Positions 6,304 to 50,395 of a stretch of 64,000 nt of DNA are shown piece by piece; position 1 is the stretch's first letter; every line of letters starts with the position of its first letter. Under the pieces are notes generated by a model, which searched no databases, was not told the origin of the DNA, and saw nothing but the letters and a program-made list of their open reading frames with translations. Position numbers and translations under genes: made by a program. Where the stretch lies: positions 1,920,001 to 1,984,000 of the forward strand of contig CM000154.2 of assembly GCA_000004695.1 (NCBI GenBank), in the 5' to 3' direction. The DNA comes from Dictyostelium discoideum (taxonomy: Eukaryota).

Positions 6304-7406
6304 TTAAAGTTTATTTCTAAAATCTGGTATTTCAGTTTTATAAATATTTTTTGATTTTATATAATTTAAAGCATTATCAGGCATTAAATATTTAACAGAA
6401 AATTTATTTCTTAATTTTTCTCTAATCTTTGTTGAAGATACATCATTTGTAATATCAGCAGGTATTAAATAAATTCCATCTTTATTCTTTGTTAATATTT
6501 CATTAATTGATATAATATCATTTAAATTTGAACCAATTCTAGGAATTACTGCAATACCAAAATTATCTTTTGATGATAATAAATTCATCTTTATTTTTAT
6601 AATTATTATTATTTTATTTTATTTTAAATTAATTTTTATTTTTATTTTTTATTTTTAATACATACATCATTATCAGACCAAAGATTTGGTATATTAAAAG
6701 AACCTAATAAATCAGAACCACAAACCAATATTACATTTACTTTGCAAATGATATTTTTATTGATGTTTAAATAATTTTCAACACTTAATTTGATATGATC
6801 TAATACTTGTCTTGTTGGTGTGAATATTGGTTTGTCAGATTCAAATCTATCCATCATTAACCAATCTGAATCTTCAATTGATAATTCAACCATTGTTGTT
6901 CTATGTGATGATTCAATTAATGTCTTTTTATCATAGCCATCACCAACTGGTGATAAATANNNNNNNNNNNNNNNNNNNNNNNNNNNNNNNNNNNNNNNNN
7001 NNNNNNNNNNNNNNNNNNNNNNNNNNNNNNNNNNNNNNNNNNNNNNNNNNNNNNNNNNNTTTTTTTTTTTTTTTTTTTTAATATTATTTGTTTAGATTAT
7101 TAAAAAAAAAAATAAAAAAAATAATAATAGTAATAATAATAATAATAATAAAAAAAAAATAAAACAAATGAATAAATTATTTATTTTATTTTATCTTATA
7201 TTATTTTATTTTATTTTATTTTATTTATAATTTTATTTTATTTTATTTTATTTTATTTTATTTTATTTTATTTTATTTTATTTACCCATCATTCTTAAAT
7301 GCATATATGTAATAGGGTTAAATGAACCAGTTCCAACTAATATTAATGGTTTTCTTGAATCATTTATATTTGGTATAGTTAATTTTGAAACTGAGAAATT
7401 ATTCAT
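6304..7406 (-). CDS. nmnat: nicotinamide/nicotinate mononucleotide adenylyltransferase (NMNAT), multi-exon, interrupted by an assembly gap
   Basis: Exon 1 (7286..7406, minus) encodes MNNFSVSKLTIPNINDSRKPLILVGTGSFNPITYMHLRMMG, containing the GxFNPxT(H) nucleotidyltransferase motif, followed by a GTAA donor. The middle exon (about 6667..6959) encodes YLSPVGDGYDKK...HRTTMVELS...ILVCGSDLLGSFNIPNLWSDND (NMNAT LLCGADxLxSF..PNLW). The last exon (6304..6588) encodes ADITNDVSSTKIRE...SVKYLMPDNALNYIKSKNIY (NMNAT ISSTxIR and SVKYLIPDxVxxYIK motifs). The 100-N gap at 6960-7059 falls inside the coding region. Confidence 0.8.
6960..7059. other. assembly gap (100 N) inside the NMNAT gene
   Basis: Literal N run. 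Confidence 0.99.
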
Positions 7407-8199
7407 TTTATAAAAAAAAAAAAAGATTTGACTGATGTTGTTATTTTAACTTTTCTTAAAAAAACAACTATATAAAATTAGAATTTAATTGAAAAAAAAA
7501 AAAATCAATAGTTTTTAATTTTTTTTTTTTTTATTTTTTTTATTTTTTTTTTTTTTTTCAATTAAATTCGCAGAATTTGTTATTTTTAAGAATGGAATAA
7601 AAAAAAATTAATTAAATTGTTATAAATCTTTTTTTTTGGTTAGTTAATTAAACTATTTTAAAATTATTTTTATCATTTTATTTTTTAATTTGAATTATTA
7701 TTATTATTATTATTGTTATTATTTTTTTTTTTTTTTTTTCATTTTTTTTTTTTAATATTTATTATTATTATTTATTGTTAATTGAAATATTTTTAAACAG
7801 TTCATTAAAATTAGAAATCAAATAAATAAAAAATAAAAAAAAAATAAAAAAAACAATAAAAATATATCAAAGTTAATAAAGAAAATGATATTCACTCACC
7901 GGATAAGCGTAGGATTTAAAAAAAATTATACCTTAAAAATGAATAAATAAAAGATATTAAAAAAAAAATTAAAAAAAAATATATTTATAGATATATCCAT
8001 AAATAAATTATTTATATTAAAAAAAATAAAAAAAAAATTAAAAAAAAAAAAAAAAAATTAAAAAAAAATATTAATTTCATTTTTTTCATTTTCATTTTAT
8101 CACCCTTTTTTTTTTTTTTTTTTTTTTTATCTTTCATGAATATTTGTATTCATATAAATTACATATAAATTTAAACAATAATAAAAAGAATTTAAAACA

Positions 8200-12007: not shown

Positions 12008-13040
12008 TTTTTTCCCCTTTTTTATTATAAAAGCTTGTCGCCAGAGAAAAATAAAAAAAAAAAAAATAAAAAAACCCGATAATCTCAGATCTGTTGAAAT
12101 GGTAATAAAAGGTTCATAAAAAAAAAAAAAAAAAAAATATCTAATTTACGTTGCAAATTGGGCAATTAACGACGCGTCACTTGTTTTTTTTTTTTTTTTT
12201 TTTTTTCGTGTGATTAATTAACAACATGATTAAAAAAATAAAATGAAAAAAAAAAATAAAATAAAATAAAATAAAAAAAAAAATAAAAAAAATTCTACAA
12301 CCTTGTAAATTAAAAAAAAAAAAAAGGTGGGCATAATTATCAAACTTGGTCCACTTTTCGTAAATTTTTTAAAATTTTTTAAATTTCGTACTATGCGGAA
12401 AAGTCTCTCTTGATTTTTTTTTTCTTTTTTTTTTATACAAAATTTTTTTTCATTTTTTGATAGTAAAAAGATATTTTCATCGAGGCATAATCGAAAAAGT
12501 GGATGGTAGATCCCAGTTAATCGCGATTAAGTTGATTTTTTTTTTTTTTCTTCACTTTTTTTTCACTTTTTTTTATTTTCTTTTTTTTTTTTTTTTTTTA
12601 ATTTTTATTTTATTTTATTTCACAATATTAGGTCGAGTCAACAATTAGATAAACACATTTTAGTGTATTCATAATCTTCTTTTTTTTTTTTTTTCTTTAT
12701 TTTTTAAAATCAAAAAAATCAAATAAAATAAAATTATTCATTTAAATTGCATTTAATAAAAAAAATAAAAAAAATAAAAAAATTAAAAAAAAAATAAAAT
12801 CTAAAAATAGAAAACTATAAATAAAAATTTTGACACCAAACAGAGAAAAAAATAAAAAAAAAAAAAAATAATAAAAAATTATTTTCAAACCAACTTACAA
12901 CACATTACAATTAAAAATAAATAACCTCATATAGTTTATTTAATCCTACTCTCATATTTTATTTCTACAAATTTAAAATAGTCTCAAAATCAATTTTCTA
13001 TTGGTTATTCAAATAATAAAAACAAAAAAAAAAAAAATAA

Positions 13041-13078
<38 letters not shown>

Positions 13079-13711
13079 AAAACTTTCACAAATATACAAC
13101 GAACCTACCAATTTAAGAATAAAATATCTAGCTATATAAGCGAATTATTCACTTTTTTCATATAAATCAATAATCAATAATTAAAAGAATAAAAAAAATT
13201 TAAAAATTTAAAAAATATAAAAATATAATAACAAAAAAAAAAAAAAAAAAAAAATTTAAACATAATAGTAATAAATATTGAATAGAAAAAATAAACAAAA
13301 AAAAAATAAAAATAAATAAATAAATAAATAAAATAATAAATATATAAATAAATAAATAAATAAATAAATATATAAATAAATAATAAATAAATAAATTAAA
13401 TACATTAAATAATTAATTAAATAAATAAAAATAAATAAAAATAAATTAAATAAAATAAATAAATAAATAAATAAATTAACACAAATAAATATATAACTTA
13501 AAAATTAAAAATAAAATTATTAAATAGGAAAATAACAAAAATAATAGATAAAATAAATATAATTAAACTAAAATAAAATAAATTATACCAAACAAAAACA
13601 AAATAACAAATAAAATAATAAAAAGATATTAAAATAAATTAAAAAAAAAATTAAAAAAAAAATAAAAAAAAAAAAAGATAATTTGAATCAAAAATAAATT
13701 GGTTGATTGGG

Positions 13712-15109: not shown

Positions 15110-16054
15110 CTAAAAATAAAGAATAAATATAAAACATAATCATTATGGTTTAAAAATAATATTTTTTTAAACTATTTTATTTTTATACATTTAATATTTT
15201 ATTTATTTTACTTTTTTTAATTTAATTTATTTTATTATATATTATTTATTTCTTCTTGGTCAGAATCTTCAGAACCTTGGCTTGAATCTTCTTGGTCAGT
15301 TTATTCTTGACCATAATTTTAAAGTTGTTGTTGGAATATTATTTAGCATTTAGTTAAAGAGATCATTAATGTTACTTGGGCCAAAAGTTTTAAAACCATC
15401 TAATAGTTTTGATATTTTTTCCTTTAACCAAACACATTTACGAATAATATTTTTATTTTGTACCCATTATATCAGATAAGCCTTTTAAAAAAATAGTCTT
15501 TCATTCTCTGTCCAGTTTGAACCCTATTTAATTATAATTTGAATAAAAGTATTAATGATGATCACCACTACTTGGTAATTTCTATCACCACTACCCCATT
15601 TTAAAAAATTAATTAAATTGTATTTGTAGAAAAAAGAAAAAATTAAAATTAAATGAAGAAAAAAAAAAAATATAATTTTGGAAAAAAAAAAAAAAATTAA
15701 TTTTGGAAAAAAAAAAAAAATTTAAAATTAATTTACAAGAATTCAACTCCATACACAATTTTATATTTTTTTTTTATTTTTTTTTTTTTATTTTTAAATT
15801 AAGCTTTATAAAATATGTTTATAGTTAAAATTTTTTTTTTTTTTTTTTTTAAATTTTTTTTTTTTTTTTTTTTTTCAAGTTTTTTTTTTTTTATTTCTAT
15901 AAAATAAAAATACAAACATATAAATTCAATTTATACAAATAAATAATAAAAGATAAAAAAAAAAAAAAAAAATGGAATTTTTGTAAGTGTAATTTAAAAA
16001 ATTATAAAAACAATATATTATGAGGAAGAATTTTTTTTTTTAGATAAAACAATA

Positions 16055-17609
16055 AACTTTGTAATGCAATAAATTTGCATCATAAAAAACTTTAATATCA
16101 TGGATTTGGTTGAGAGAATGGTAACCAATGGGAAAATTAAAGAAATATTACCAAAGTTAATATCAACAAAACAAATTCATGAAGAAAAGATTTTATTTTT
16201 AATTAATTTAATTTTAGTATTGTTGGAATCTATTAATTTCATTAAAATTGATAAATAGATAGAGAATTTTAACAATAACACCAATTAATGAAAATAGATT
16301 TAATTTATTGAATGATTATTGGCAAATGTTATTAGAAAATCATCAGTTTTTAAATAATCATTTTATTGAAACAGGAGTATATAATAATTTAATAATCAAT
16401 AAAGATACGTTTGAAAGTGAAGGCAGATTAGAACAAATTCAATTTTATACTCTAGTACATCCAATAATTTGCAAAAACTGTATCAGAAACATTAGCTCAT
16501 AATGCCAAAAATAGATTCAATGATTCAACCATAACTCCAAATCAAATTGTAGACCATACTCGTTTGCTCAATGGTACATGTGAATCTACTTTTTGAATGT
16601 TGAAAAATGGACAATGGATAGAACATGACCAGAGCTCAGTGCTTATATGAACTCATTTAGATCATTCTCTATGCAATGTGTCCAATCGACCACCACTTGG
16701 GATTCAACAACCATTAGAAGAATACCATATTATCGTGATGAACCAGAATATGATACTGAAACTAAATTGGAATTTATTAGATTATTTTTTAATAGTTTGA
16801 CAAATCAATTCTCTAAAAGAACCTTTACAAGAAATGAAAATAAGCAACCATTTGAATCCGAAATGGTAAATCAATTCAATGATAGCAAATTAAAATTAAA
16901 TTATTGTTTAAAATTAGTTAGAAACAATTTCTTGTGCGAAACTGGTAAATTTCAACTTTCAATCAAAGGTTTGTCCAAGTCCCACACCAAGAAAAAAGAG
17001 CAATTTCAGTAAATATAGCAAGAAAATGTATAGGTTATAATGAAGATTCTCGTTTAGATGCTGTAATTTTTCAAACATCTGATTTTCGCCGTAAAGTTAT
17101 ATTTAAAGAAGAAGTTGCCAACTATGAATTTACTCCAAGTTTGGTAAATGAATCAATTAAAATAAAGAATGAATGTGAAGATTTAACACTTCTCCTCAAT
17201 GAAAGAAGATTGGTTCTAAATCAAAATCCAATTTTGTTATCCCAACTAATCGATTTGGCATCAATTATTAAAAATGAAAAACACGAATATAATGCGTTCA
17301 AATAAAATTTCTAATCAACTTAGAATGCAATAATCAAAAATAAAGAATTATTCTGATTCATATTTTGAAAAGGCAAATACTTTCAAATTTAATAAATCAA
17401 TTGTTTCAGAGATTGAAGTCAAATAATTTAATTGAAAGAGAAGGTCTTCCCAATAAATTAGAAAACCTAGATATGGAAAATATTATTGGTTTATATGAAA
17501 TTGAATCTTCAAATGATAATATGGAATGAAAATCCAAATCTATAATTTATTATTGAGGCTTGAACATTATGTGAATCTAATTTTTGTTATAGTGTCATTT
17601 CTGGTTTCA
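16055..17609 (+). repeat. copy A of an unidentified dispersed repeat family (normal-complexity sequence with broken ORFs)
   Basis: Unlike the AT-homopolymer intergenic DNA elsewhere, this segment has codon-like complexity with multiple interrupted frames (ORFs 16308..16502, 16647..17012). 16055-16160 is homologous to 19958-20060; 17380-17540 to 21690-21860; and 17050-17400 to the reverse complement of 21870-22110. Confidence 0.6.
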
Positions 17610-17770
17610 NNNNNNNNNNNNNNNNNNNNNNNNNNNNNNNNNNNNNNNNNNNNNNNNNNNNNNNNNNNNNNNNNNNNNNNNNNNNNNNNNNNNNNNNNNN
17701 NNNNNNNNNAAAATTAGATTCACATAATATAATGTTCAAGCCTCAATAATAAATAATAGATTTGGATTAT
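17525..17770. repeat. imperfect palindrome (inverted repeat arms of about 60 nt) centred on an assembly gap
   Basis: 17525-17585 (aatccaaatctataatttattattgaggcttgaacattatgtgaatctaatttt) is the reverse complement of 17710-17770 (aaaattagattcacataatataatgttcaagcctcaataataaataatagatttggatt). The 100-N gap at 17610-17709 sits exactly at the centre. Confidence 0.75.
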
Positions 17771-18699
17771 TATCAAAAAAAATGGCTGATATAATTAAAA
17801 ATTTATAAATAATAATAATAAATATAATAAAAAAATAAATAAATAAATAAATAAAATTTTAAATAATAAAAAAAAATTAAGAAAAAAAAGGTTAACAAAT
17901 TGAAGCCTTAATATTTATAAATAATAAAAAAAAAAAAAAAAAGTAAGAAAACATTAATTAACATCACATCAAATTTGTTTCGTCAACTTTTTAATTTAAA
18001 TTTAAATGAAGAGATAGAAAATTTAAAATCTGCATATATGCTTATATTGGGAATTAAATCTTTTTAAATGGTTTCAAGTTGGCCCGTTGTAAATGAAATA
18101 ATTGATCTTGAAATTACTGTTGATATTGTAATAGTAATTTCTGTTGTTTTTCTATTTACTGTGAGATTGGTGACATTGTTTCATTATTATTATTATTTTG
18201 TTGACCAGTTATCATTGGCCCATTATCCTCATTATTATAAACTTATTTAATAAACTAATTAAATTAAATAAATTATTACTATTATTAAAGGAAGAAGAAA
18301 ATCTTGTAAATCAAACTCTGGATTTATTTGAAAAAACGGCCCTTGATTTTTTCAAAATATTTTTTAAAAAAAAAAAAAATTAAATGTATAATTATCTAAA
18401 AACAAATTTTAATAATTTAAGATCAAGATTTTGTACCATATCTGTTCTTTTTATTTTTAGATACACTATTTAAATGTTTTAGAATATGTTGAGTTAATAA
18501 AATTACATTTTTTAAAAAAAAATATTTGAACAGATTGGGTAAAAAAAAAAAAAAGAAATTAAAATATTTTTTTAAAAAATTCAGGAATAAATTAATATTT
18601 TATTAATTAGAAATATAAAAAAAAAAAAAAAAATTTAAATGAATAAATAATCTACAAATAAAATTATTTATAATTTTGATTATTCTTTGCAACAATTTT

Positions 18700-19135
18700 T
18701 GATATTTTGAGAGAGCTTTACAGCAATTTCAATAATACTGTACAGTCCATCTTTTTTCGAAATTCTTATCAATTGTAATCATGATAGTTTGCAGTTAGAA
18801 CAATGGCAGTAACTGCTGGTGAAACATCACGAAGAAGGGTATATGCAACACGTTGAACATCAGCAACTGTGATTTCATTAATACGTGTGTATACCTCAAA
18901 TGGTGATAAACGACGACCTAAAGTTAAAATTTGACGACCAATGCCTTCGCAAACTTTACTGGTACCATCGTATTGCATTAATGTGGTAGCTAAAAGTTTT
19001 TGTTTGTTACGTTCTACCTCATTTTTATTGCAACTAGTTGCGATTCTTTGCCACTCCTTCAAACATTTCAGCAACTAAATCATCAACACGTTCTGGTTGA
19101 CAAACACCATAGTTACCAAAAGAGAAAGAACAAAC
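18700..19135 (-). pseudogene. duplicated 3' fragment of the mitochondrial processing peptidase beta gene (mppB pseudogene fragment)
   Basis: 18780-19125 is near-identical at the nucleotide level to 22900-23225 of the intact gene. ORF 18769..19074 encodes LKEWQRIATSCNKNEVERNKQKLLATTLMQYDGTSKVCEGIGRQILTLGRRLSPFEVYTRINEITVADVQRVA..., matching mppB residues about 284-384 with a premature stop. 18700-18780 is more diverged. Homology includes the stop codon and about 20 nt of 3' UTR and ends abruptly at about 19125. Confidence 0.85.
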
Positions 19136-19957: not shown

Positions 19958-20987
19958 TAATGCAACTAATTTTGCTTTTTAATAATGGATTTGGTTAAGA
20001 GAATGGTATCCAATTGAAGAATTATAGGAATGTTACCAAGTTTTTACCAACAAACATTAAAATTGATATTGAGTTTTTAACAACTACACGTGTAGTATAC
20101 TAATAAATGAAAAATTAAAATATTTCAAAAATTAAATCAATTTCTTTTTATTTTATCATTATATTATATAGTTTTGGAATAGACTATATGTTTAAATAAT
20201 AATAGTAAAAAAAAAAATAATGGTTAAAAAATATTTACATTCAAACAATTAATCCATCAAAACTCAAACATTCTTCACGACCACTGAGAAAAATTTTAAC
20301 TTAGGCACTATAAGCCCCAACAGCCCAAACTGAATTGTAAAAACCTTGTAAGGGCTGTTCTTAACCCTTATGAATGATGTATGGGCTGCTTGCAAAGTTT
20401 CAAATTTTGCACGCAGCCCGTACAGTCTTTTAAAGGGTTGTGTAAAGCCCTTACAAGGTTTTTTAGATATTTGCTAACAACAATAATACTTAAAAAAAAA
20501 AAACGGTTGCACAACCCATTCAAATTTTTAAAAAAAATTATTCAAACGAAAATTCAATATTAATAAATATATATGAAATTTCATATTTATATAAAAAAAT
20601 AATCAAAATAAATACAATAATTTATAATTTTTTTTTTTTATATAAAAAAATATAAAATCAAATAAATATAAATATATTTTTATCTATTTTAAATTTTATA
20701 TAAATTTTTTTTTTTTTTTTTTTTTTCTATTTATTTGATTTTATTTGATTTTTTTATTTTTGACCTAAAATAAATGTAAAGTTATTAGTTAAAGTTATTA
20801 GTTTTTTTATTTTTTTTTTTTATTTATTTATTTTTTTTTTTTTAGGTACTTTAATATTAAAAAAAAAACATGTTATTTTTTAAAAAAAATTTACATTTAT
20901 ATATAGGATATAAATTTTCCTATTTTATTTTATTTTATTTCCTAAATATAAATTCCTATTTTATTTTATTTTATTTATTTATTGGTT

Positions 20988-21069
<82 letters not shown>

Positions 21070-22110
21070 TAATTGACTATAGTATAATAATTTTTGAATC
21101 TATATTTAAATAAAATATAATTGAAAAATATAAAATAAAAACAATATGCAAAGTGATTTTTTATTTTAATTTTGGTAAAGAGAAAATTAAAATTAAAAAA
21201 AAGAAAAAATTAATAATAAAAAATACTACATACATTCAGGTTTTTATTTTTTTTGCAAAGTCACAAACAATATTATCGTATTTTCTTACCAAATGTTTAA
21301 ATAAATAAATTTATTAACAACGATTAAATATTGTTTATTTTTTAAATACATTTAAAAAAGAAAAAATTATAAACCTTGTTATTGCCCATTTTAAAAAAAA
21401 CCTTTGGAATCTTTGCAGTACATTTTTTTTTTTAAAAAAAAAAAATACCTTGTATTAGCCCGGTTGGGACGAATAGACCGTTCAGCCATTTAGTCCATTT
21501 TTTTTTTTTTAAAAAAAAATTTTTTAAGGACTGTCAACCGGGTTTATACAAGCCCTTATAAGAGATCATGGCTTGGTCGTGTTGTAAAATAATATATAAA
21601 CAATAAAATAAAATAAAATAAAATAGAAAAAAATATTAAAATCATTTTAAATCATATAATGTATGTGCCATATTTGATCTTTATTAAACATTATTTTTAG
21701 TTTTTCAGCTGAAGTCAAAATAAATAAGTTAATTGATAGAGAAGGTACCATGAAATTAGAGAAAATAGTTATTGAAAATATTATTAGTTTAAATGAAAAA
21801 GAATTTTCAAATGGATTTATGGAAATTTATTATTTATTAAACCTATATTGTGTCGATTTGAGTGTTTTCATCTTTTCCAAGGATGAATCAGCCAATTTCT
21901 TTATTTTAGAAGTTGCTTTCTAAGTTGACTCTGAGATTATTTCTAATCCATTATGGATTTATATATATGGTTTTTTCTCTTTTACAATATGAAATCTTCT
22001 TTCATTCATCCTTAAATTTAATAAATTCATATAACAAGCTTAGAGAAATTTCATAGTGGGCAACTTCTTCAGAAATATAACTCTACGACGAACATCTGGT
22101 GTAGGACTTT
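19958..22110. repeat. copy B of the same dispersed repeat family, rearranged with an internal inversion and GC-richer hairpin islands
   Basis: See copy A for homology blocks. 21690-21860 (plus orientation) and 21870-22110 (inverted) match adjacent parts of copy A. Hairpin islands lie at 20340-20460 and 21465-21560. Confidence 0.55.
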
Positions 22111-22139
22111 GGACAAACCTTCGAAAGAAATAAAATAAT

Positions 22140-22193
22140 TATCAACACACCAACATAATAATAATATAATGATAATAATAATAATAATAATTA

Positions 22194-22283
<90 letters not shown>

Positions 22284-22310
22284 TAATAATAATAATAAGA
22301 TTACTCAACT
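22140..22310. repeat. (ATT/AAT)n microsatellite
   Basis: ataataataataat... run. A second (ATT)n run lies at 22617-22702. Confidence 0.9.
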
Positions 22311-22611
22311 AAAACATACAAAACACAAATATTAAATAAACGTGAATAAAATAATATATATGAAAATTATAAATATAAATTGTTATTTTAGGGAAAAATA
22401 TCATAAATGCCCAACACATACCAAAACACTCAACGGATGAATATAAAAATAAAGACCAAATATCAATACGAATTAAAACGATTTTAGTATGTTTTTTTTT
22501 TCATTTTATTTTATTATTATTTTTATATATATTATTTTTTAACAGTTTTTTTTTGAGAATGTATGAGTTTAGTGTGGATTAATTGCCTGAATGTATTTAT
22601 GTATTAACCAC

Positions 22612-22701
<90 letters not shown>

Positions 22702-22799
22702 TAATATTATTAATATTATTATTTATTTTTATAAACCTATAATCTGTTCCAATACTAAATAATTTAAAGATAAAAAAAAAAAAAATTAGTAAAAATTTA

Positions 22800-24200
22800 T
22801 TAGTTAAAATTTTTGGAAAAAAATTGAGAGAGCTTCGCAGCAATTTCAATAATACTTACAGTCCAGCCTTTAACAAAATTGTAGTCAGGGTAGTTTGCAA
22901 TTGGGCCAATGGCAGTAACTGCTGGTGAAACATCACGAAGAAGGGTAGATGCAACACGTTGAACATCAGCAACTGTGATTTCATTAATACGTGTGTATAC
23001 CTCAAATGGTGATAAACGACGACCTAAAGTTAAAATTTGACGACCAATGCCTTCGCAAACTTTACTGGTACCATCGTATTGCATTAATGTGGTAGCTAAA
23101 AGTTTTTGTTTGTTACGTTCTACCTCATTTTTATTGCAACTAGTTGCGATTCTTTGCCATTCCTTCAACATTTCAGCAACTAAATCATCAACACGTTCTG
23201 GTTGACAAACACCATAGTTACCGAAAAGACCTGTATCTTGATAACAAGTGAAAAAGGTAGAATAAGATTCTGCAAGATCTTCAGTGGCAACAATTTCACC
23301 AAGGTTTGATGCAATGTTTTTACCGGCGGCAATACCACGATTCCAGTTACCAATCATAGTTTGAATTAATTCTAAAACAAAGTAATCTGGATCAGTCCAT
23401 GGAAGGGCTCTAACAGCAACGGCAAAATGAATCAATGGTTGTTCATCATCACGGACACGGAGTTCTGAACCAATAAAGTCATTGGTGATTGCGGCTCTCT
23501 TTACATCTTTAGAAACTTGTGACATCTTTACGTTTGCGAATTTCTCTTTAACTTGTTCAACGAGTTGTTCATGGTTAACTGCACCAGCAGCAGAGATAAC
23601 TAAACGATCACCAGTATAATTTTCATTGATAAATTCTTGAATTTGTTCACGAGTAATTGATTTAATATTTTCGACTGGACCTAAAATGGTTCTACCTAAT
23701 GCTGAACCTTGGAAAGCGGCGGCGTGTAATTGATCAAAGACAACTTCATCTTCTTTGGATTGAATATAATCGTTTTCACTGAGGATGGTGTCACGCTCTT
23801 GTTCAATTAATGAGGTTTCAAATTTACTATTTTGTAAGATATCAGAGAGGATATCAACGGCATTTGGTACGTTATCTTTTAAAACTTTCATGTAGTAAGC
23901 ACTGTGTTCACGACTAGTGAATGCATTTAAACTACCACCCATATTTTCAATTTCAGTTTCAATTGATTGTGGTGTTGGACGTTTGGCTGTACCTTTGAAA
24001 ATCATATGTTCTAAAAAGTGTGCTACACCATTATTCTTATCAGTTTCATAAACTGAACCACTATCAACCCAAACACCTACACTTGCAACTTCACCATATG
24101 TTTGTTCTGTTGCAACTCTAATACCATTTGATAATGTTGTAATTTTAGTTTCTGGTGAAATCTTTAAATATGATGGGTCAACTGTTTTTCTTGAAAATGA
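22800..24200 (-). CDS. mppB: mitochondrial processing peptidase beta subunit / core-1-like M16 peptidase (3' exon(s); 5' presequence exon not resolved)
   Basis: The minus-strand ORF, extended upstream to an AG acceptor at about 24200, encodes RSFSRKTVDPSYLKISPETKITTLSNGIRVATEQ...VGVWVDSGSVYETDKNNGVAHFLEHMIFKGTAKR (the M16 HxxEH inverted zinc motif, HFLEH), then ...LGRTILGPVENIKSITREQIQEF...NYPDYNFVKGW. The codon usage is GC-richer than the neighbours, suggesting high expression. The upstream exon carrying the initiator Met and targeting peptide could not be placed. Confidence 0.85.
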   Translation of the reverse strand, partial: SFSRKTVDPSYLKISPETKITTLSNGIRVATEQTYGEVASVGVWVDSGSVYETDKNNGVAHFLEHMIFKGTAKRPTPQSIETEIENMGGSLNAFTSREHSAYYMKVLKDNVPNAVDILSDILQNSKFETSLIEQERDTILSENDYIQSKEDEVVFDQLHAAAFQGSALGRTILGPVENIKSITREQIQEFINENYTGDRLVISAAGAVNHEQLVEQVKEKFANVKMSQVSKDVKRAAITNDFIGSELRVRDDEQPLIHFAVAVRALPWTDPDYFVLELIQTMIGNWNRGIAAGKNIASNLGEIVATEDLAESYSTFFTCYQDTGLFGNYGVCQPERVDDLVAEMLKEWQRIATSCNKNEVERNKQKLLATTLMQYDGTSKVCEGIGRQILTLGRRLSPFEVYTRINEITVADVQRVASTLLRDVSPAVTAIGPIANYPDYNFVKGWTVSIIEIAAKLSQFFSKNFN

Positions 24201-31921: not shown

Positions 31922-33292
31922 TTAATTTAAAATTGATCTACAAGATGGACAACATAAATCTGGATCTTGATAAATTTCTTCACCTGGGAAACAATTAAGT
32001 TTAAAACAATTTGAATGATTACAAGTTGGTCTACATTGTTTACAACATTGATCATCTGGCTGATAAAGTTCATAACCATTTGCACAAAATATTAATGGAC
32101 AGAAAATATTTGAACAATCTTTTTTACATTTTCTTGGACAACATTCACCAATTTCAGTGAATGGTGAATATCCTGGTTGACAGAAAATTGGTGGACAATA
32201 AACCAATTTACAATTTGGAACGCAAGTATTTGGACAACAATCAGTTTCATTTAAAAGTGGAACAAATCCATCTGGACAATTTAATGGTGGACAATGATAT
32301 TGTGGATCACATTTACATGAACTTGGGCAACAATCACCTGGTGCTGTATATGGTAATTTACCAATTGGACAGAAATATGGAGGACATGGTCTATTTGGAT
32401 TACATTGACATGAACTTGGGCAACAATCACCTGGTTTAGTATATGGTAATTTACCATCTGGACAAATGTATGGGAGACATGGTGTACTTGAATCACATTG
32501 ACATGAACTTGGACAACAATCACCTGGTCTTGTATATGGTACTTGACCTATTGGACAGAAATATGGAGGACATGGTCTATTTGGATTACATTGACATGAA
32601 CTTGGACAACAATCACCTGGTTTAGTATATGGAGTTTGACCTTCTGGACAGAAATATGGAGGACATGGTCTACTTGAATCACATTTACATGAACTTGGAC
32701 AACAATCACCTGGTCCTGTATATGGTACTTGACCTATTGGACAGAAATATGGAGGACATGGTCTACTTGGATCACATTTACATGAACTTGGACAACATTC
32801 ACCTGGTTTTGTATATGGTACTTGACCGTCTGGACAAAAATATGGAAGGCATGGTCTACTTGGATCACAAATACATCTACTGGGACAACAATCACCTGGT
32901 GCTGTATATTCTTTATAACCTGGTGCACAACCTAATAAAGGACAAACATTATTTGGTCTACAAACACATTCTGGACAACATTTATCATCAGCTTTAAATG
33001 GAATTTTATCACCTTCACATCTAATGAATGGACAATCAGATGGTGCTGGACAAATTGTACATACTGGACAACATGAATTTGGTGGTCTAATTAAATCATA
33101 ACCTGGTTTACAAACTGGAATTAAACATCTTACATTATTACATTCCAAATCTTGTGCGGCCAAAACTGTTGAATTATCAGTAGATGTTGAATTTAATGGT
33201 GAGCTTTCTTCACCAAATACTTTTAATAAATTATTACTTGAAAATAATAACAAACATATTGAAAATATTATTAAACTATTTAGTTTTACCAT
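31922..33292 (-). CDS. secreted cysteine-rich tandem-repeat protein (about ten 34-aa Cys-rich modules)
   Basis: Signal-peptide-like MVKLNSLIIFSICLLLFSSNNLL. The module CPPYFCPIGQVPYT(K/G/R)PGDCCPSSC(K/Q)C(D/N)P(S/N)RP is repeated with minor variation. No intron is evident. Confidence 0.7.
   Translation of the reverse strand: MVKLNSLIIFSICLLLFSSNNLLKVFGEESSPLNSTSTDNSTVLAAQDLECNNVRCLIPVCKPGYDLIRPPNSCCPVCTICPAPSDCPFIRCEGDKIPFKADDKCCPECVCRPNNVCPLLGCAPGYKEYTAPGDCCPSRCICDPSRPCLPYFCPDGQVPYTKPGECCPSSCKCDPSRPCPPYFCPIGQVPYTGPGDCCPSSCKCDSSRPCPPYFCPEGQTPYTKPGDCCPSSCQCNPNRPCPPYFCPIGQVPYTRPGDCCPSSCQCDSSTPCLPYICPDGKLPYTKPGDCCPSSCQCNPNRPCPPYFCPIGKLPYTAPGDCCPSSCKCDPQYHCPPLNCPDGFVPLLNETDCCPNTCVPNCKLVYCPPIFCQPGYSPFTEIGECCPRKCKKDCSNIFCPLIFCANGYELYQPDDQCCKQCRPTCNHSNCFKLNCFPGEEIYQDPDLCCPSCRSILN
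32190..32900. repeat. about 102-bp tandem repeat (about 7 copies) within the Cys-rich protein CDS
   Basis: The unit ...catgaacttggacaacaatcacctggt...tatggtacttgacc(t/g)(a/t)ttggacagaaatatggaggacatggtctacttggatcaca... recurs with about 90% identity. It generates spurious antisense ORFs 32161..32997. Confidence 0.85.
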
Positions 33293-46630: not shown

Positions 46631-47178
46631 TCAAAAATTAAAGGTAACTTTAATTCTATTCTTTTTTTTTTTTTTTTTAAAATAAAACAATAAAATTAAT
46701 GAAAATAAAAAAATTAACTAATTCTTTTTTTTTTAAAATAAAACAATAAAATTAATAAAAATAAAAAAATTAACTAATTCTTTTTTTTTTTTTTTTTATA
46801 AAAAAAATTTTTTTTTTAAAATCTATTCTTTCTTTAAAATAAAAAACAATCACAAAAATTAAAAAAGAAAGTGAAAAAAAAAAAAAAAAAAAAAAATCTA
46901 TAATTAAACTATTGGGAATGGTCCAAAAAAAAAAAAAAAATTACCAAAATTATTGGTTGAACTGAAAAAAAAAAAAAGTGGGGTATTCTATGAAAATATC
47001 TCTAAAGATTTTGGTCAATTTATTTTTTTGGTAGTTTTACCCTATTTAATTTTTTTTTTTTATGGTAATATTAAAAGGAATATTTTTTTTTTTTTATGGT
47101 AACATTAAAAGGAATTTTTTTTTTCTACCAATCATTATTTTTTTTATCAAATAAATAAATAATAAACAAACATATACA

Positions 47179-48306
47179 ATGATTGATTCAGAGATAGAGT
47201 TAAATAAAGTAATAGTAGTACCATTAATATCAAAAGATTCATTAGATATTAATGATGCAAAAAATTACTATGGAACCGAGTTACACCCAAATCAACCAAT
47301 TCCAACAATAGTTTCAACTCAATCTGAAGTGAATTCTTTAGTTAATCAAAAATCTGGTAATAATCAACAATTGGCCAATGAAGAAAGATTAGTTATATTA
47401 TTAAAACAACAAGAGGTAGAAAAAGATAAAACATTTGATACAAATAAATATTTTAACGAATTATCAACAGATTTATTTGGAAAGAATTTAATTCATACTG
47501 AAGTAATTAGTTCAACACAAGATATAATGTTAAAATATTTAACATATACTCGTCAAGGATTAGTAATGATTGCAGATCAACAAACCGATGGTAGAGGACG
47601 TGATGGAAATAAATTCTTGTCTCCATTGGGATGTTTGTTAATGTCATTCAAATGTAAACAAACTGATTGTAACAAATTACCATTCCTTCAATATTTGACT
47701 GGTATGGCAATGGTCGAAGCAATTCACTCTTTCCCAATTGCATCTGATTTAAATCTTAGTTTGAAATGGCCAAATGAAATCTTTACTAAGGAAGCAGGTA
47801 TTAAGCTTGGTGGAGTCCTCTGTGAACCAAAATATCTTAACAATGAATTTGATGTTGTCATTGGTGTTGGTGTTTATCTTTCAAATTCAAATAATCCATC
47901 AACAACTGTAAATCAATTAATTCACCAGAAACAACAACATGGATCTTCTTTATCATCAACAACAACAAGTACTGATATTCCAATTTATATTAATAGAGAA
48001 GAATTGGTTTCAAAATTCTTTAACAAATTCGAACCAATGTTTATGGAGTTTACAAGAGATGGCTTTAATGCAGATCTTGAAAATAGATACACTGACTTAT
48101 GGATGCATACAAATCAAATTGTAAAAGTAAAAGAAAGAGATTACCATCATGTTAAAATCATTGGTATTTCTGATAGAGGTTTCCTTAAAGTTATTGAATG
48201 TGATGCTGGTGGTAATTCATCTCCAAACTCTCAAATCGTTGAACTAAACCCAGAAAGTACTTCATTTGATATTCAAAATTTAATTTTAATGCAAAAATCA
48301 CAATAA
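47179..48306 (+). CDS. biotin--protein ligase (BirA/holocarboxylase-synthetase catalytic domain) paralog 1
   Basis: VMIADQQTDGRGRDGNKFLSPLGCLLMSF matches the BPL GRGRxGxxWxSPxG biotin-binding loop. LKWPNEIFTKEAGIKLGGVLCE matches BirA KWPNDLYL...KLAGILVE. Confidence 0.8.
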   Translation: MIDSEIELNKVIVVPLISKDSLDINDAKNYYGTELHPNQPIPTIVSTQSEVNSLVNQKSGNNQQLANEERLVILLKQQEVEKDKTFDTNKYFNELSTDLFGKNLIHTEVISSTQDIMLKYLTYTRQGLVMIADQQTDGRGRDGNKFLSPLGCLLMSFKCKQTDCNKLPFLQYLTGMAMVEAIHSFPIASDLNLSLKWPNEIFTKEAGIKLGGVLCEPKYLNNEFDVVIGVGVYLSNSNNPSTTVNQLIHQKQQHGSSLSSTTTSTDIPIYINREELVSKFFNKFEPMFMEFTRDGFNADLENRYTDLWMHTNQIVKVKERDYHHVKIIGISDRGFLKVIECDAGGNSSPNSQIVELNPESTSFDIQNLILMQKSQ

Positions 48307-48882
48307 TCAAAATAAATAATTAAAATAAATAATTTAATATTGGTTTTGTTTTGGTTTGTGTTTTTCCTGTTAATGTTAATTTTTTTTTATTATAAGGAGA
48401 CCTTTTTTTTTTTATTATTTATCATTCATTTCTTATAACTTGTTTTTTATTTTGAAAAATAGATTTAAAATAAAAAAAAAAAAAAAAAAAATTATAATTA
48501 TTATAAATTCTTCATAGAATAGAATTTAAAAAGTACTTTTTGATTTGGAAAAAAAAAAAAAAAAAATAAAAAAAAAGTTTTTAAAAAAAAAAAAAAAAAA
48601 TGTTTGAAAATGGAAATTTTTTTTTATTTCTAGTTAGATGTGTGTCTTTTTCAACTTACTTTTTTAAGTGGTTAACTGGATGAATTTATTATAATTATTC
48701 TTTTTTTTTTTTACAAAGGTAATGAAATATAAATTTTTTTTTATTTTTTTTTTTTTTGTTATAAAAAGGAAATTTTTTTTGTTATTTAAACCCAATTTTT
48801 TTTTTTTTTTTTAATATTAATAGTAATTATTTTTTTTTTCCTTCCCTCATTATTTTTTTTAAATAATAAATAAACATATACA

Positions 48883-50010
48883 ATGATTGATTCAGATATA
48901 GAATTAAATAAAATAATAGTAGTACCATTAATATCAAAAGATTCATTAGATATTAATGATGCAAAAAATTACTATGGAACCGAGTTATACCCAAATCAAC
49001 CAATTCCAACCATAGTTTCAGCTCAATCTGAAGTAGATTCTTTAATTAATCAAACTTCTGGTAATAATGATGAAGAAAGATTAGTTTTATTATTAAAACA
49101 ACAACAACAAGAGGTAGAAAAAGATAAAACATTTGATACAAATAAATATTTTAACGAATTATCAACAATTTTATTTGGAAAGAATTTAATTCATTCTGAA
49201 GTAATTAGTTCAACACAAGATATAATGTTAAAATATTTAACATATACTCGTCAAGGATTAGTAATGATTGCAGACCAACAAACCAAAGGTAGAGGACGTG
49301 GTGTAAATAAATTCTTGTCTCCATTGGGATGTTTGTTAATGTCATTCAAATGTAAACAAACTGATGGTAATAAATTACCATTCCTTCAATATTTGGCTGG
49401 TATGGCAATGGTCGAAGCAATTCACTCTTTCCCAAGTGCATCTGATTTAAATCTTCGTTTGAAGTGGCCAAACGATATCTATAGTAATGAACCAGGTATG
49501 AAAGTTGGTGGTGTCCTCTGTGAATCAAATTATCTTAACAATGAATTTGATGTTGTCATTGGTGTTGGTGTTAATCTTTCAAATTCAAATAATCCATCAA
49601 CAACTATAAATCAATTAATTCAAAAGAAAAAATATGGATTTTCATCATCATCATTGGCAACAAGTACTGATATTCCAATTTATATTAGTAGAGAAGAATT
49701 GGTTTCAAAATTCTTTAACAAATTCGAACCAATGTTTATGGAATTTACAAGAGATGGCTTTAATGCAGATCTTGAAAATAGATACACTGACTTATGGATG
49801 CATACAAATCAAATTGTAAAATTTAAAGAAAGAGATAACCATCATGTTAAAATCATTGGTATTTCTGATAGTGGTTTCCTTAAAGCTATTGAATGTGATG
49901 CTGATGGTAATACATCTTCTGACTCTGAAACCGTTGAGCTTCACCCAGATGGTACTTCATTTGATATTCAAAACTTAATTTTAATGCAAAAATCACAACA
50001 ACCAAAATAG
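48883..50010 (+). CDS. biotin--protein ligase paralog 2 (tandem duplicate)
   Basis: About 85% amino-acid identity to paralog 1, including GRGRGVNKFLSPLG and KWPNDIYS...KVGGVLCE. About 20 nt of conserved 5' flank (aaacatatacaATGATTGATTCAGA) is shared. Confidence 0.8.
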   Translation: MIDSDIELNKIIVVPLISKDSLDINDAKNYYGTELYPNQPIPTIVSAQSEVDSLINQTSGNNDEERLVLLLKQQQQEVEKDKTFDTNKYFNELSTILFGKNLIHSEVISSTQDIMLKYLTYTRQGLVMIADQQTKGRGRGVNKFLSPLGCLLMSFKCKQTDGNKLPFLQYLAGMAMVEAIHSFPSASDLNLRLKWPNDIYSNEPGMKVGGVLCESNYLNNEFDVVIGVGVNLSNSNNPSTTINQLIQKKKYGFSSSSLATSTDIPIYISREELVSKFFNKFEPMFMEFTRDGFNADLENRYTDLWMHTNQIVKFKERDNHHVKIIGISDSGFLKAIECDADGNTSSDSETVELHPDGTSFDIQNLILMQKSQQPK

Positions 50011-50395
50011 ATAAAAAAAAAAAAATTTTTAGTAATCACTTTTTTTCCCAATATTTTCTTTACAGAATAATAAATAATAAATAAATAATAAATAAATAAT
50101 AAATATATATATTTTTTATCATAATTTATTTTATTTTTATTATTTATTTGTATTAAAATGAGTTTAAAAAAAAAAAAAAAAAAATTAAATTTGAAAAATA
50201 ATATTAACCCAACAGACGAGAAAGAGAGAACCAGATTTTTTTTTTTTTTTTTTTTTTGATATCGAACCCCATTTCCTTTAAGAAAAAACTTAAATAATTA
50301 AAAAAAAAATATGAATAGATATTATTTAAGACCCATATATAATTTCCCACACTATTTTTATTATTATTTATTTATAATATTTAATTTTATTCAAT

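Follow-up and report, generated by a model that had tools for sequence, protein, structure and literature searches.

The window analysed here, a whole stretch of 64,000 nt from chromosome 5 of Dictyostelium discoideum AX4 with a GC content of ~20%, contains the orphan gene DDB_G0288767 (hereafter gene G) and the mitochondrial processing peptidase gene mppB, and is interrupted by three assembly gaps, each written as a run of exactly 100 Ns. The third gap lies 3′ of gene G and is flanked by the inverted repeat that is the subject of this study. For comparison we used L002, the corresponding locus of a gapless D. discoideum assembly (GCA_054883475.1) that was reached through the mppB protein cluster and extends only to window position 12606, and L009, a locus carrying the gene G orthologue from D. 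cf. discoideum, a cryptic sister species and the sole outgroup species. The strain of L002 is probably AX2-214. The N-free chromosome-scale assemblies of strains and sister species used here most probably come from a Nanopore and Illumina study (PMC12745789, PRJNA1300491), whose strain set includes the lab strain AX2-214. A further contig, L010, was assembled by Logan from short reads of another run (SRR28564541) and carries gene G together with the left arm of the repeat. The features of the window that concern us are the following.

2406–2505: assembly gap, 100 Ns
6960–7059: assembly gap, 100 Ns
16647–17305 (+): gene G, DDB_G0288767, AX4 hypothetical protein and orphan; model of 202 aa with its stop at 17303–17305
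17421–17530 (+): segment Y, the final exon-like part of gene G ahead of the palindrome; collinear with L009 7431–7529, up to ...ATGGAA
17531–17609 (+): visible left arm, 79 of 85 nt, with the terminal TTCTAT falling in the gap; reverse complement of the right arm as read in L002
17610–17709 (no strand): assembly gap, 100 Ns; true content, as read from L002, 53 nt consisting of TTCTAT (end of the left arm), ATTTGCATAATAATTG (16-nt loop) and ATAGAATGAAACCAGAAATGACACTAGAACA (first 31 nt of the right arm)
17710–17768 (+): visible right arm, 59 of 90 nt, carrying the 5-nt ATAAT at 17729–17733
17769–17882 (+): right flank, a remnant of the ancestral ORF end plus 3′ region; collinear with L009 and identical between the window and L002
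21729–22096 (+): junction in copy B, with 21729–21826 forward (~L009 7432–7529), 30 nt at 21827–21856, and 21857–22096 inverted (~L009 7397 back to 7080)
22800–24005 (−): mppB, a 401-aa ORF of peptidase M16, 100% identical over 382 aa to D. discoideum AX4 mitochondrial processing peptidase beta

An inverted repeat flanks the third gap

A preliminary description of this DNA had reported reverse-complement arms of ~60 nt on either side of the 100-N gap, and these are present: the reverse complement of 17710–17768 aligns with 17531–17584 at 53 of 54 positions, with one mismatch and one 5-nt indel, which is the tandem ATAAT of the right arm. Inverted local alignment of the 300-nt flanks of the gap gave a score of 90, compared with 27.1 ± 4.2 for dinucleotide shuffles of the same flanks (maximum 50 in 500). 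Among 376 random window sites, five outscored the gap flanks, all of them (AAT)n or poly(A) simple repeats, whereas the gap-arm sequence is complex. We also looked for a flanking inverted repeat at the other two gaps (2406–2505 and 6960–7059) and found none. The flanks of the first gap (2256–2405 and 2506–2655) resemble the poor ends of reads, with bases doubled as in AAACGGGGGGGAAAAACCCTTTTTTTT, and contig ends of this assembly may include low-quality sequence.

The extent of the visible arms differs in two respects from what had been described. Two small indels had been counted, of which the 5-nt ATAAT stands and the second proved to be a 10-nt offset in ordinary flank. Specifically, we considered TGATAAT/ATTATCA as an outer extension of the arms across a 10-nt indel and rejected it on finding TGATAATATGGAA collinear with the Y segment of L009; by this alignment the outer TGATAAT...ATTATCA stretch is flank and not arm. 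The centre of the palindrome does fall inside the gap but not exactly in its middle as far as the visible arms go, which are asymmetric about the Ns: the left-arm match ends 25 nt short of them, leaving 17585–17609 without a partner inside the window, while the right arm directly abuts them.

The gap content completes a 191-bp hairpin

The window and L002 are 98.8–99.9% identical on both sides of the gap, with alignments that end at 17609 and restart at 17710. Between these alignments L002 holds 53 nt (16961–17013), giving a true gap length of 53 nt where 100 Ns are written; L002 is not AX4, and the content of the AX4 gap is in this sense inferred from a sister lab strain. Within these 53 nt, ATAGAATGAAACCAGAAATGACACTAGAACA is the partner of 17579–17609 that is absent from the window, and the symmetry centre lies at nucleotides 14–15. 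The whole element thus comprises 85 + 16 + 90 = 191 bp at 25% GC, with 83 of 85 arm positions paired plus the 5-nt tandem insertion of the right arm. Homology ends at 17531 and 17768. As single-stranded DNA it folds at −86.1 kcal/mol, compared with −17.5 ± 3.2 for shuffled sequences (z = −22), and as RNA it is predicted to fold at −122 kcal/mol (z = −22).

It had been proposed that spanning sequence be checked for arms that extend symmetrically into the gap, and in L002 they do so: around the 16-nt loop, the left arm gains 6 nt and the right arm 31 nt. The opposite outcome, a gap of unique non-palindromic sequence with arm similarity limited to the 60 nt seen at first, does not apply, as 37 of the 53 gap nucleotides belong to the arms. 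The suggestion that the true element might be a much longer inverted duplication is refuted by the complete 191-bp unit with its arms of 85 and 90 nt. We conclude that this inverted repeat is a genuine structure of D. discoideum chromosome 5 at the 3′ end of DDB_G0288767. The only differences from the other assemblies within 200 nt of the gap are at 17542 and 17589, both in the left arm near the contig end, where the window has A and both L002 and L010 have C; these may be strain differences or Sanger errors.

Contig ends coincide with the hairpin stems

In AX4, 6 nt separate the end of the left contig from the loop, and 31 nt separate the loop from the start of the right contig, which places both ends within the stems. 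L010 terminates exactly at ...TTCTAT, the boundary between arm and loop, so that assembly by a second method also broke at this structure. Judging from these contig-end positions, the hairpin very plausibly caused the gap at 17610–17709. The earlier proposal that structure and not chance made this gap is therefore well supported by the contig ends in the stems, the stop of L010 and the lack of an inverted repeat at the other two gaps. In this process, the hairpin would have halted clone-based Sanger reads from both sides, leaving a gap in the AX4 reference.

The sister species carries one arm

Window positions 17427–17882 are collinear with L009 7431–7836 on the + strand, yet the segment that forms the arms in AX4, which we call segment S, is present only once in L009 (7636–7722), inside a 62-aa ORF (7578–7766). 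This region of L009 has no significant inverted repeat and folds at −11 kcal/mol (z = +0.9). The right arm and right flank follow L009 on the + strand, through S at 7636–7722 and then the flank, whereas it is the reverse complement of the left arm and loop that is collinear with L009 7618–7720, i.e. these match the − strand. The loop itself matches the 16 nt upstream of S at 14 of 16 positions when reversed and at 3 of 16 when compared directly. For the ~90 nt at L009 7530–7619 we found no counterpart in AX4. Nearer to mppB in the same sister genome, at 13453–13539 of locus L003, lies another homologue with one arm, followed by the same right flank.

The left arm matches the right arm at 83 of 85 positions and S of L009 at 75 of 85. 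The arms thus differ from each other at 2 of 85 positions but from L009 at ~8–10 of 85, and eight of these differences are common to both arms, a pattern expected of a copy made after the species split. From these alignments we infer that the left arm is a derived, inverted copy of exon segment S and that the right arm is the ancestral one, still in place. This polarity would follow from one un-rearranged outgroup locus (L009) and the L003 paralogue, where an arm could also have been lost. We considered whether the L009 tract deleted in AX4 (tract D) could itself be a diverged left arm of older date, making the AX4 hairpin a homogenised quasi-palindrome, and rejected this in view of the absence of a significant inverted repeat or fold in L009.

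The host gene appears to be decaying

A Pfam search of the gene G ORFs detected no domain, and a literature search for DDB_G0288767 found no paper. Among the loci examined, homologues of G are confined to AX4/AX2-like strains, a single Logan contig and D. cf. discoideum. The L002 gene model of G ends at L002 17094, equivalent to window 17529, with a TGA stop at window 17527–17529. Comparison with L009 indicates that this TGA arose at the palindrome junction, where it would truncate the ancestral last exon, and the ATAAT insertion at 17729–17733 additionally breaks the ancestral reading frame. Upstream, at ~16975, a 1-nt deletion common to AX4 and L002 (CCAAGTCC vs CCAAAGTCC in L010) shifts the frame of G; the AX4 gene model bridges this frameshift with an intron, whereas L010 has an uninterrupted 219-aa ORF. 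The junction TGA and the upstream frameshift together give gene G the appearance of a decaying gene.

Gene G lies in a duplicated and rearranged neighborhood of mppB

Self-BLAST of the window, run with DUST and a GC filter as the unfiltered version was swamped by A/T-rich noise, revealed a local tandem duplication in which copy A (16091–19123) and copy B (19978–23229) share 79–88% identity. Copy A consists of G and a 3′ fragment of mppB, and copy B of G remnants and the intact mppB. The term repeat family, previously applied to these copies, is hence a misnomer, as A and B are two units of one local tandem segmental duplication, made of the orphan gene and the mppB 3′ end, and are not dispersed. 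The forward-then-inverted junction noted in copy B (21690–22110), on the other hand, was confirmed at the coordinates listed above. The forward part of B ends at the same nucleotide position as that of A, with L009 collinearity running up to ...ATGGAAAT, and the paralogous copy of Y in B spans 21722–21824. The arms of A are 97.6% identical, while A and B differ by ~21% in Y. The arms of A are thus far more alike than A is to B, which argues for either separate events or later homogenisation of the arms.

The mppB gene has introns, and fragments of its 3′ end recur behind it in several arrangements. In the window, the fragment at 18628–19123 (−) is a pseudogene that shares 95% identity with the mppB gene at D. 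cf. discoideum locus L001 but, with AX4's own mppB (22757–23229), only 88% over the whole stretch and 93.5% over the coding part. L001 has one inverted mppB 3′ fragment (12231–12606), and L003 has three direct ones (12377–12701, 15234–15688 and 15818–15991); L004 and L005 have no G. The region downstream of mppB is arranged differently in every genome examined. In addition, the CAP–mppB gene pair is inverted with respect to its neighbors between the D. discoideum clade (L002–L005) and D. firmibasis, D. citrinum and D. dimigraforme (L006–L008), these neighbors being PHP-like, 457-aa and HSP20-like genes on one side and 387-aa, Tmemb_14 and CTP_transf genes on the other. The inversion of CAP–mppB and the variable sequence downstream of mppB place the palindrome within a rearrangement-prone breakpoint region.

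Other repeats were also observed in the window. A 125-bp palindrome at 20339–20463 is GC rich (40%), with 62-nt arms that are 79% complementary around a 1-nt spacer, and similar ACCTTGTA...GCCC motifs lie ~1 kb beyond it, inside copy B (21360–21590). Its sequence bears no relation to that of the gap palindrome, and it could represent a small repeat element. Further along, 47057–48335 and 48773–50028 form a 1.3-kb direct duplication of 89.5% identity, and 32268–32909 is a block of 93-nt tandem repeats of 83–89% identity.

Discussion

The 191-bp repeat at the 3′ end of DDB_G0288767 was probably made by a local template switch in the AX4 lineage, the simplest reading of the alignments, which truncated an already dispensable gene, and the hairpin shows no sign of function. 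During replication or break repair, the growing strand would have left its template at the end of Y (point 1) and primed again ~190 nt farther along, on the opposite strand, where the right end of S lies (point 2). From there it would have been extended backward through S and the 16 nt upstream of it (point 3) before rejoining its first template where S begins (point 4). The outcome would be the loss of ~90 nt of ancestral exon, the presence of S twice in opposite orientation and the inversion of the 16-nt spacer. On L009 the switch points map approximately to ~7529 (point 1), 7620 (point 3), 7636 (point 4) and ~7722 (point 2), and a single four-point event accounts for the deletion (7530–7619), the inverted copy (7620–7722) and the direct copy (7636 onward). 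The source is local: the left arm and loop are reverse complementary to sequence that lies no more than a few hundred nucleotides away on the same chromosome. The left junction, corresponding to point 1, lies at ~17524–17530, where a search for microhomology found none that was convincing. A break-repair route, by polymerase snap-back or templated insertion in end joining, leads to the same product and is indistinguishable from a replication-fork switch.

Three other histories would produce an inverted repeat at this position. A cloning or assembly artefact, whether from a contig placed in the wrong orientation or from a contig end built on a chimeric or fold-back read, would fit the poor read tails included in contig ends of the window, as at 2406–2505, and the two base differences from the other assemblies in the last 70 nt of the left contig, but we give it almost no credence: both arms lie in the same places, joined across the gap, in the independent Nanopore and Illumina assembly, the left arm up to the loop is also found in the independent short-read contig L010, and the window and L002 agree at every one of the 240 nt that follow the gap on its right side. 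L002 is moreover not derived from AX4, as it lacks Ns and carries indels and substitutions relative to the window along its length. The compact, AT-rich palindromic unit with sharp ends at 17531 and 17768, together with the presence of another, unrelated palindrome 2.6 kb away (20339–20463), could instead suggest a MITE or foldback transposable element inserted at the site. This is highly improbable, as the immediate flanks (AATGAA and ATTATC) show no target-site duplication, with no direct repeat between ...GGAATGAA and ATTATCAA..., and searches of the 64-kb window and of 10 related loci (~200 kb) yielded no second copy. Nor is the site empty in L009 and L003, where one arm is continuous with the same flank and lies in an ORF, which means that the arms derive from exon sequence of the locus itself and were not brought in from elsewhere. 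It is also very unlikely that the hairpin is what remains of a far longer palindrome, built of the 3′ half of the gene, a centre and the same half inverted, that predates copies A and B and was later trimmed in A and centrally deleted in B. Such a relic would explain why A and B leave L009 collinearity at the same position, ...ATGGAA(AT), why 320 nt of upstream gene sequence recur inverted in B, and why ATTATCAA...(AAT)n follows both copies; however, arm identity of 97.6% against the ~21% divergence of A and B in Y would require continued arm-to-arm conversion, A inverts downstream sequence and B upstream sequence so that they are not two halves of one palindrome, and the right-flank similarity of B is short and AT rich.

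A different question is whether the hairpin, however it arose, acts as a hairpin-RNA gene, with the palindrome transcribed either in the 3′ UTR of DDB_G0288767 or alone and diced into siRNA- or miRNA-like small RNAs. The predicted RNA fold is very stable, as given above, the hairpin starts at the stop codon of the L002 gene model (window 17527–17529), and it has sub-threshold Rfam matches to several miRNA precursor families with perfect hairpins. Template switching is a documented source of new miRNA hairpins, which are said to arise de novo in this way in a template-switch study, and the AX4 gap would hide the hairpin from reference-based miRNA prediction. Nevertheless, we consider such a role unlikely. 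No Rfam family reached its gathering score, the best being RF04213 at 64.8 bits vs a threshold of 90, and the matches fall on both strands and to unrelated plant and animal families, reflecting only a generic hairpin shape. The k-mers of the arms had no match in the supplementary data of two D. discoideum miRNA catalogues, in which the AX4 gap would have blocked prediction anyway, or in Dictyostelium papers; in the literature they gave only chance primer matches in unrelated papers. The hairpin is also unconserved, with one arm in D. cf. discoideum and none near mppB in four other loci, and its host gene is frameshifted. A more specific version of this role, in which the hairpin would form the start of the DDB_G0288767 3′ UTR, be cut by Dictyostelium Dicer-like enzymes and represent a very young amoebozoan hairpin-RNA locus derived from its own exon, is in our view quite unlikely. 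Were it true, every AX4-based small-RNA study would have missed the locus, its centre being an assembly gap. We conclude that the hairpin probably has no function.

The probable template switch leaves an ordinary but well-resolved hairpin, which represents no new kind of element or mechanism and is already spanned by public long-read assemblies. It plausibly explains the persistent AX4 gap 3′ of DDB_G0288767, and with a content of 53 nt and not 100, analyses mapped to AX4 can be corrected.

Comparison with known systems

Palindromic AT-rich repeats such as the human PATRR11 and PATRR22 were unclonable and left gaps in the reference genome. The AX4 element resembles them as an AT-rich, near-perfect palindrome able to form a hairpin or cruciform, centred on a gap in a clone-based assembly that could be closed only by other sequencing methods. 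It differs from the PATRRs in its size (191 bp vs several hundred bp) and in having an origin traceable to one copying event at the locus; also unlike the PATRRs, translocation or polymorphic breakage is not in evidence for the AX4 element. With MITEs and foldback elements it shares the form of a short AT-rich unit folding into one long hairpin, but it lacks a target-site duplication, is single copy in the loci searched and has one arm that is ancestral in situ in relatives. Plant miRNA genes reportedly originate by inverted duplication (a model attributed to Allen et al. 2004), and here too both arms come from the coding sequence of a gene and have the near-perfect complementarity typical of a young locus. 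In AX4, however, the source gene itself is degenerate, and the hairpin is known from sequence only.

The closest parallel is with template-switch mutations, for which Loytynoja and Goldman are said to have set out a four-point model in 2017. As in that model, a tract was replaced by the reverse complement of neighboring sequence, the point order 1 < 3 < 4 < 2 yields a perfect stem and the loop is inverted; judging from L009 and L003, the ancestor probably had no hairpin. Four-point template switches are known to yield reverse-complement repeats, with the loop inverted when the copied source covers it (Monttinen and Loytynoja, PMC8794818). The AX4 event differs from the usual case in the length of the copied tract, ~100 nt vs 10–30 nt, and in its location in an exon of a decaying amoebozoan protein gene. 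It stands as an unusually clean and large example of a probable template switch, for which one can still recover the likely ancestral single copy, the tract that was deleted and the spacer that was inverted.
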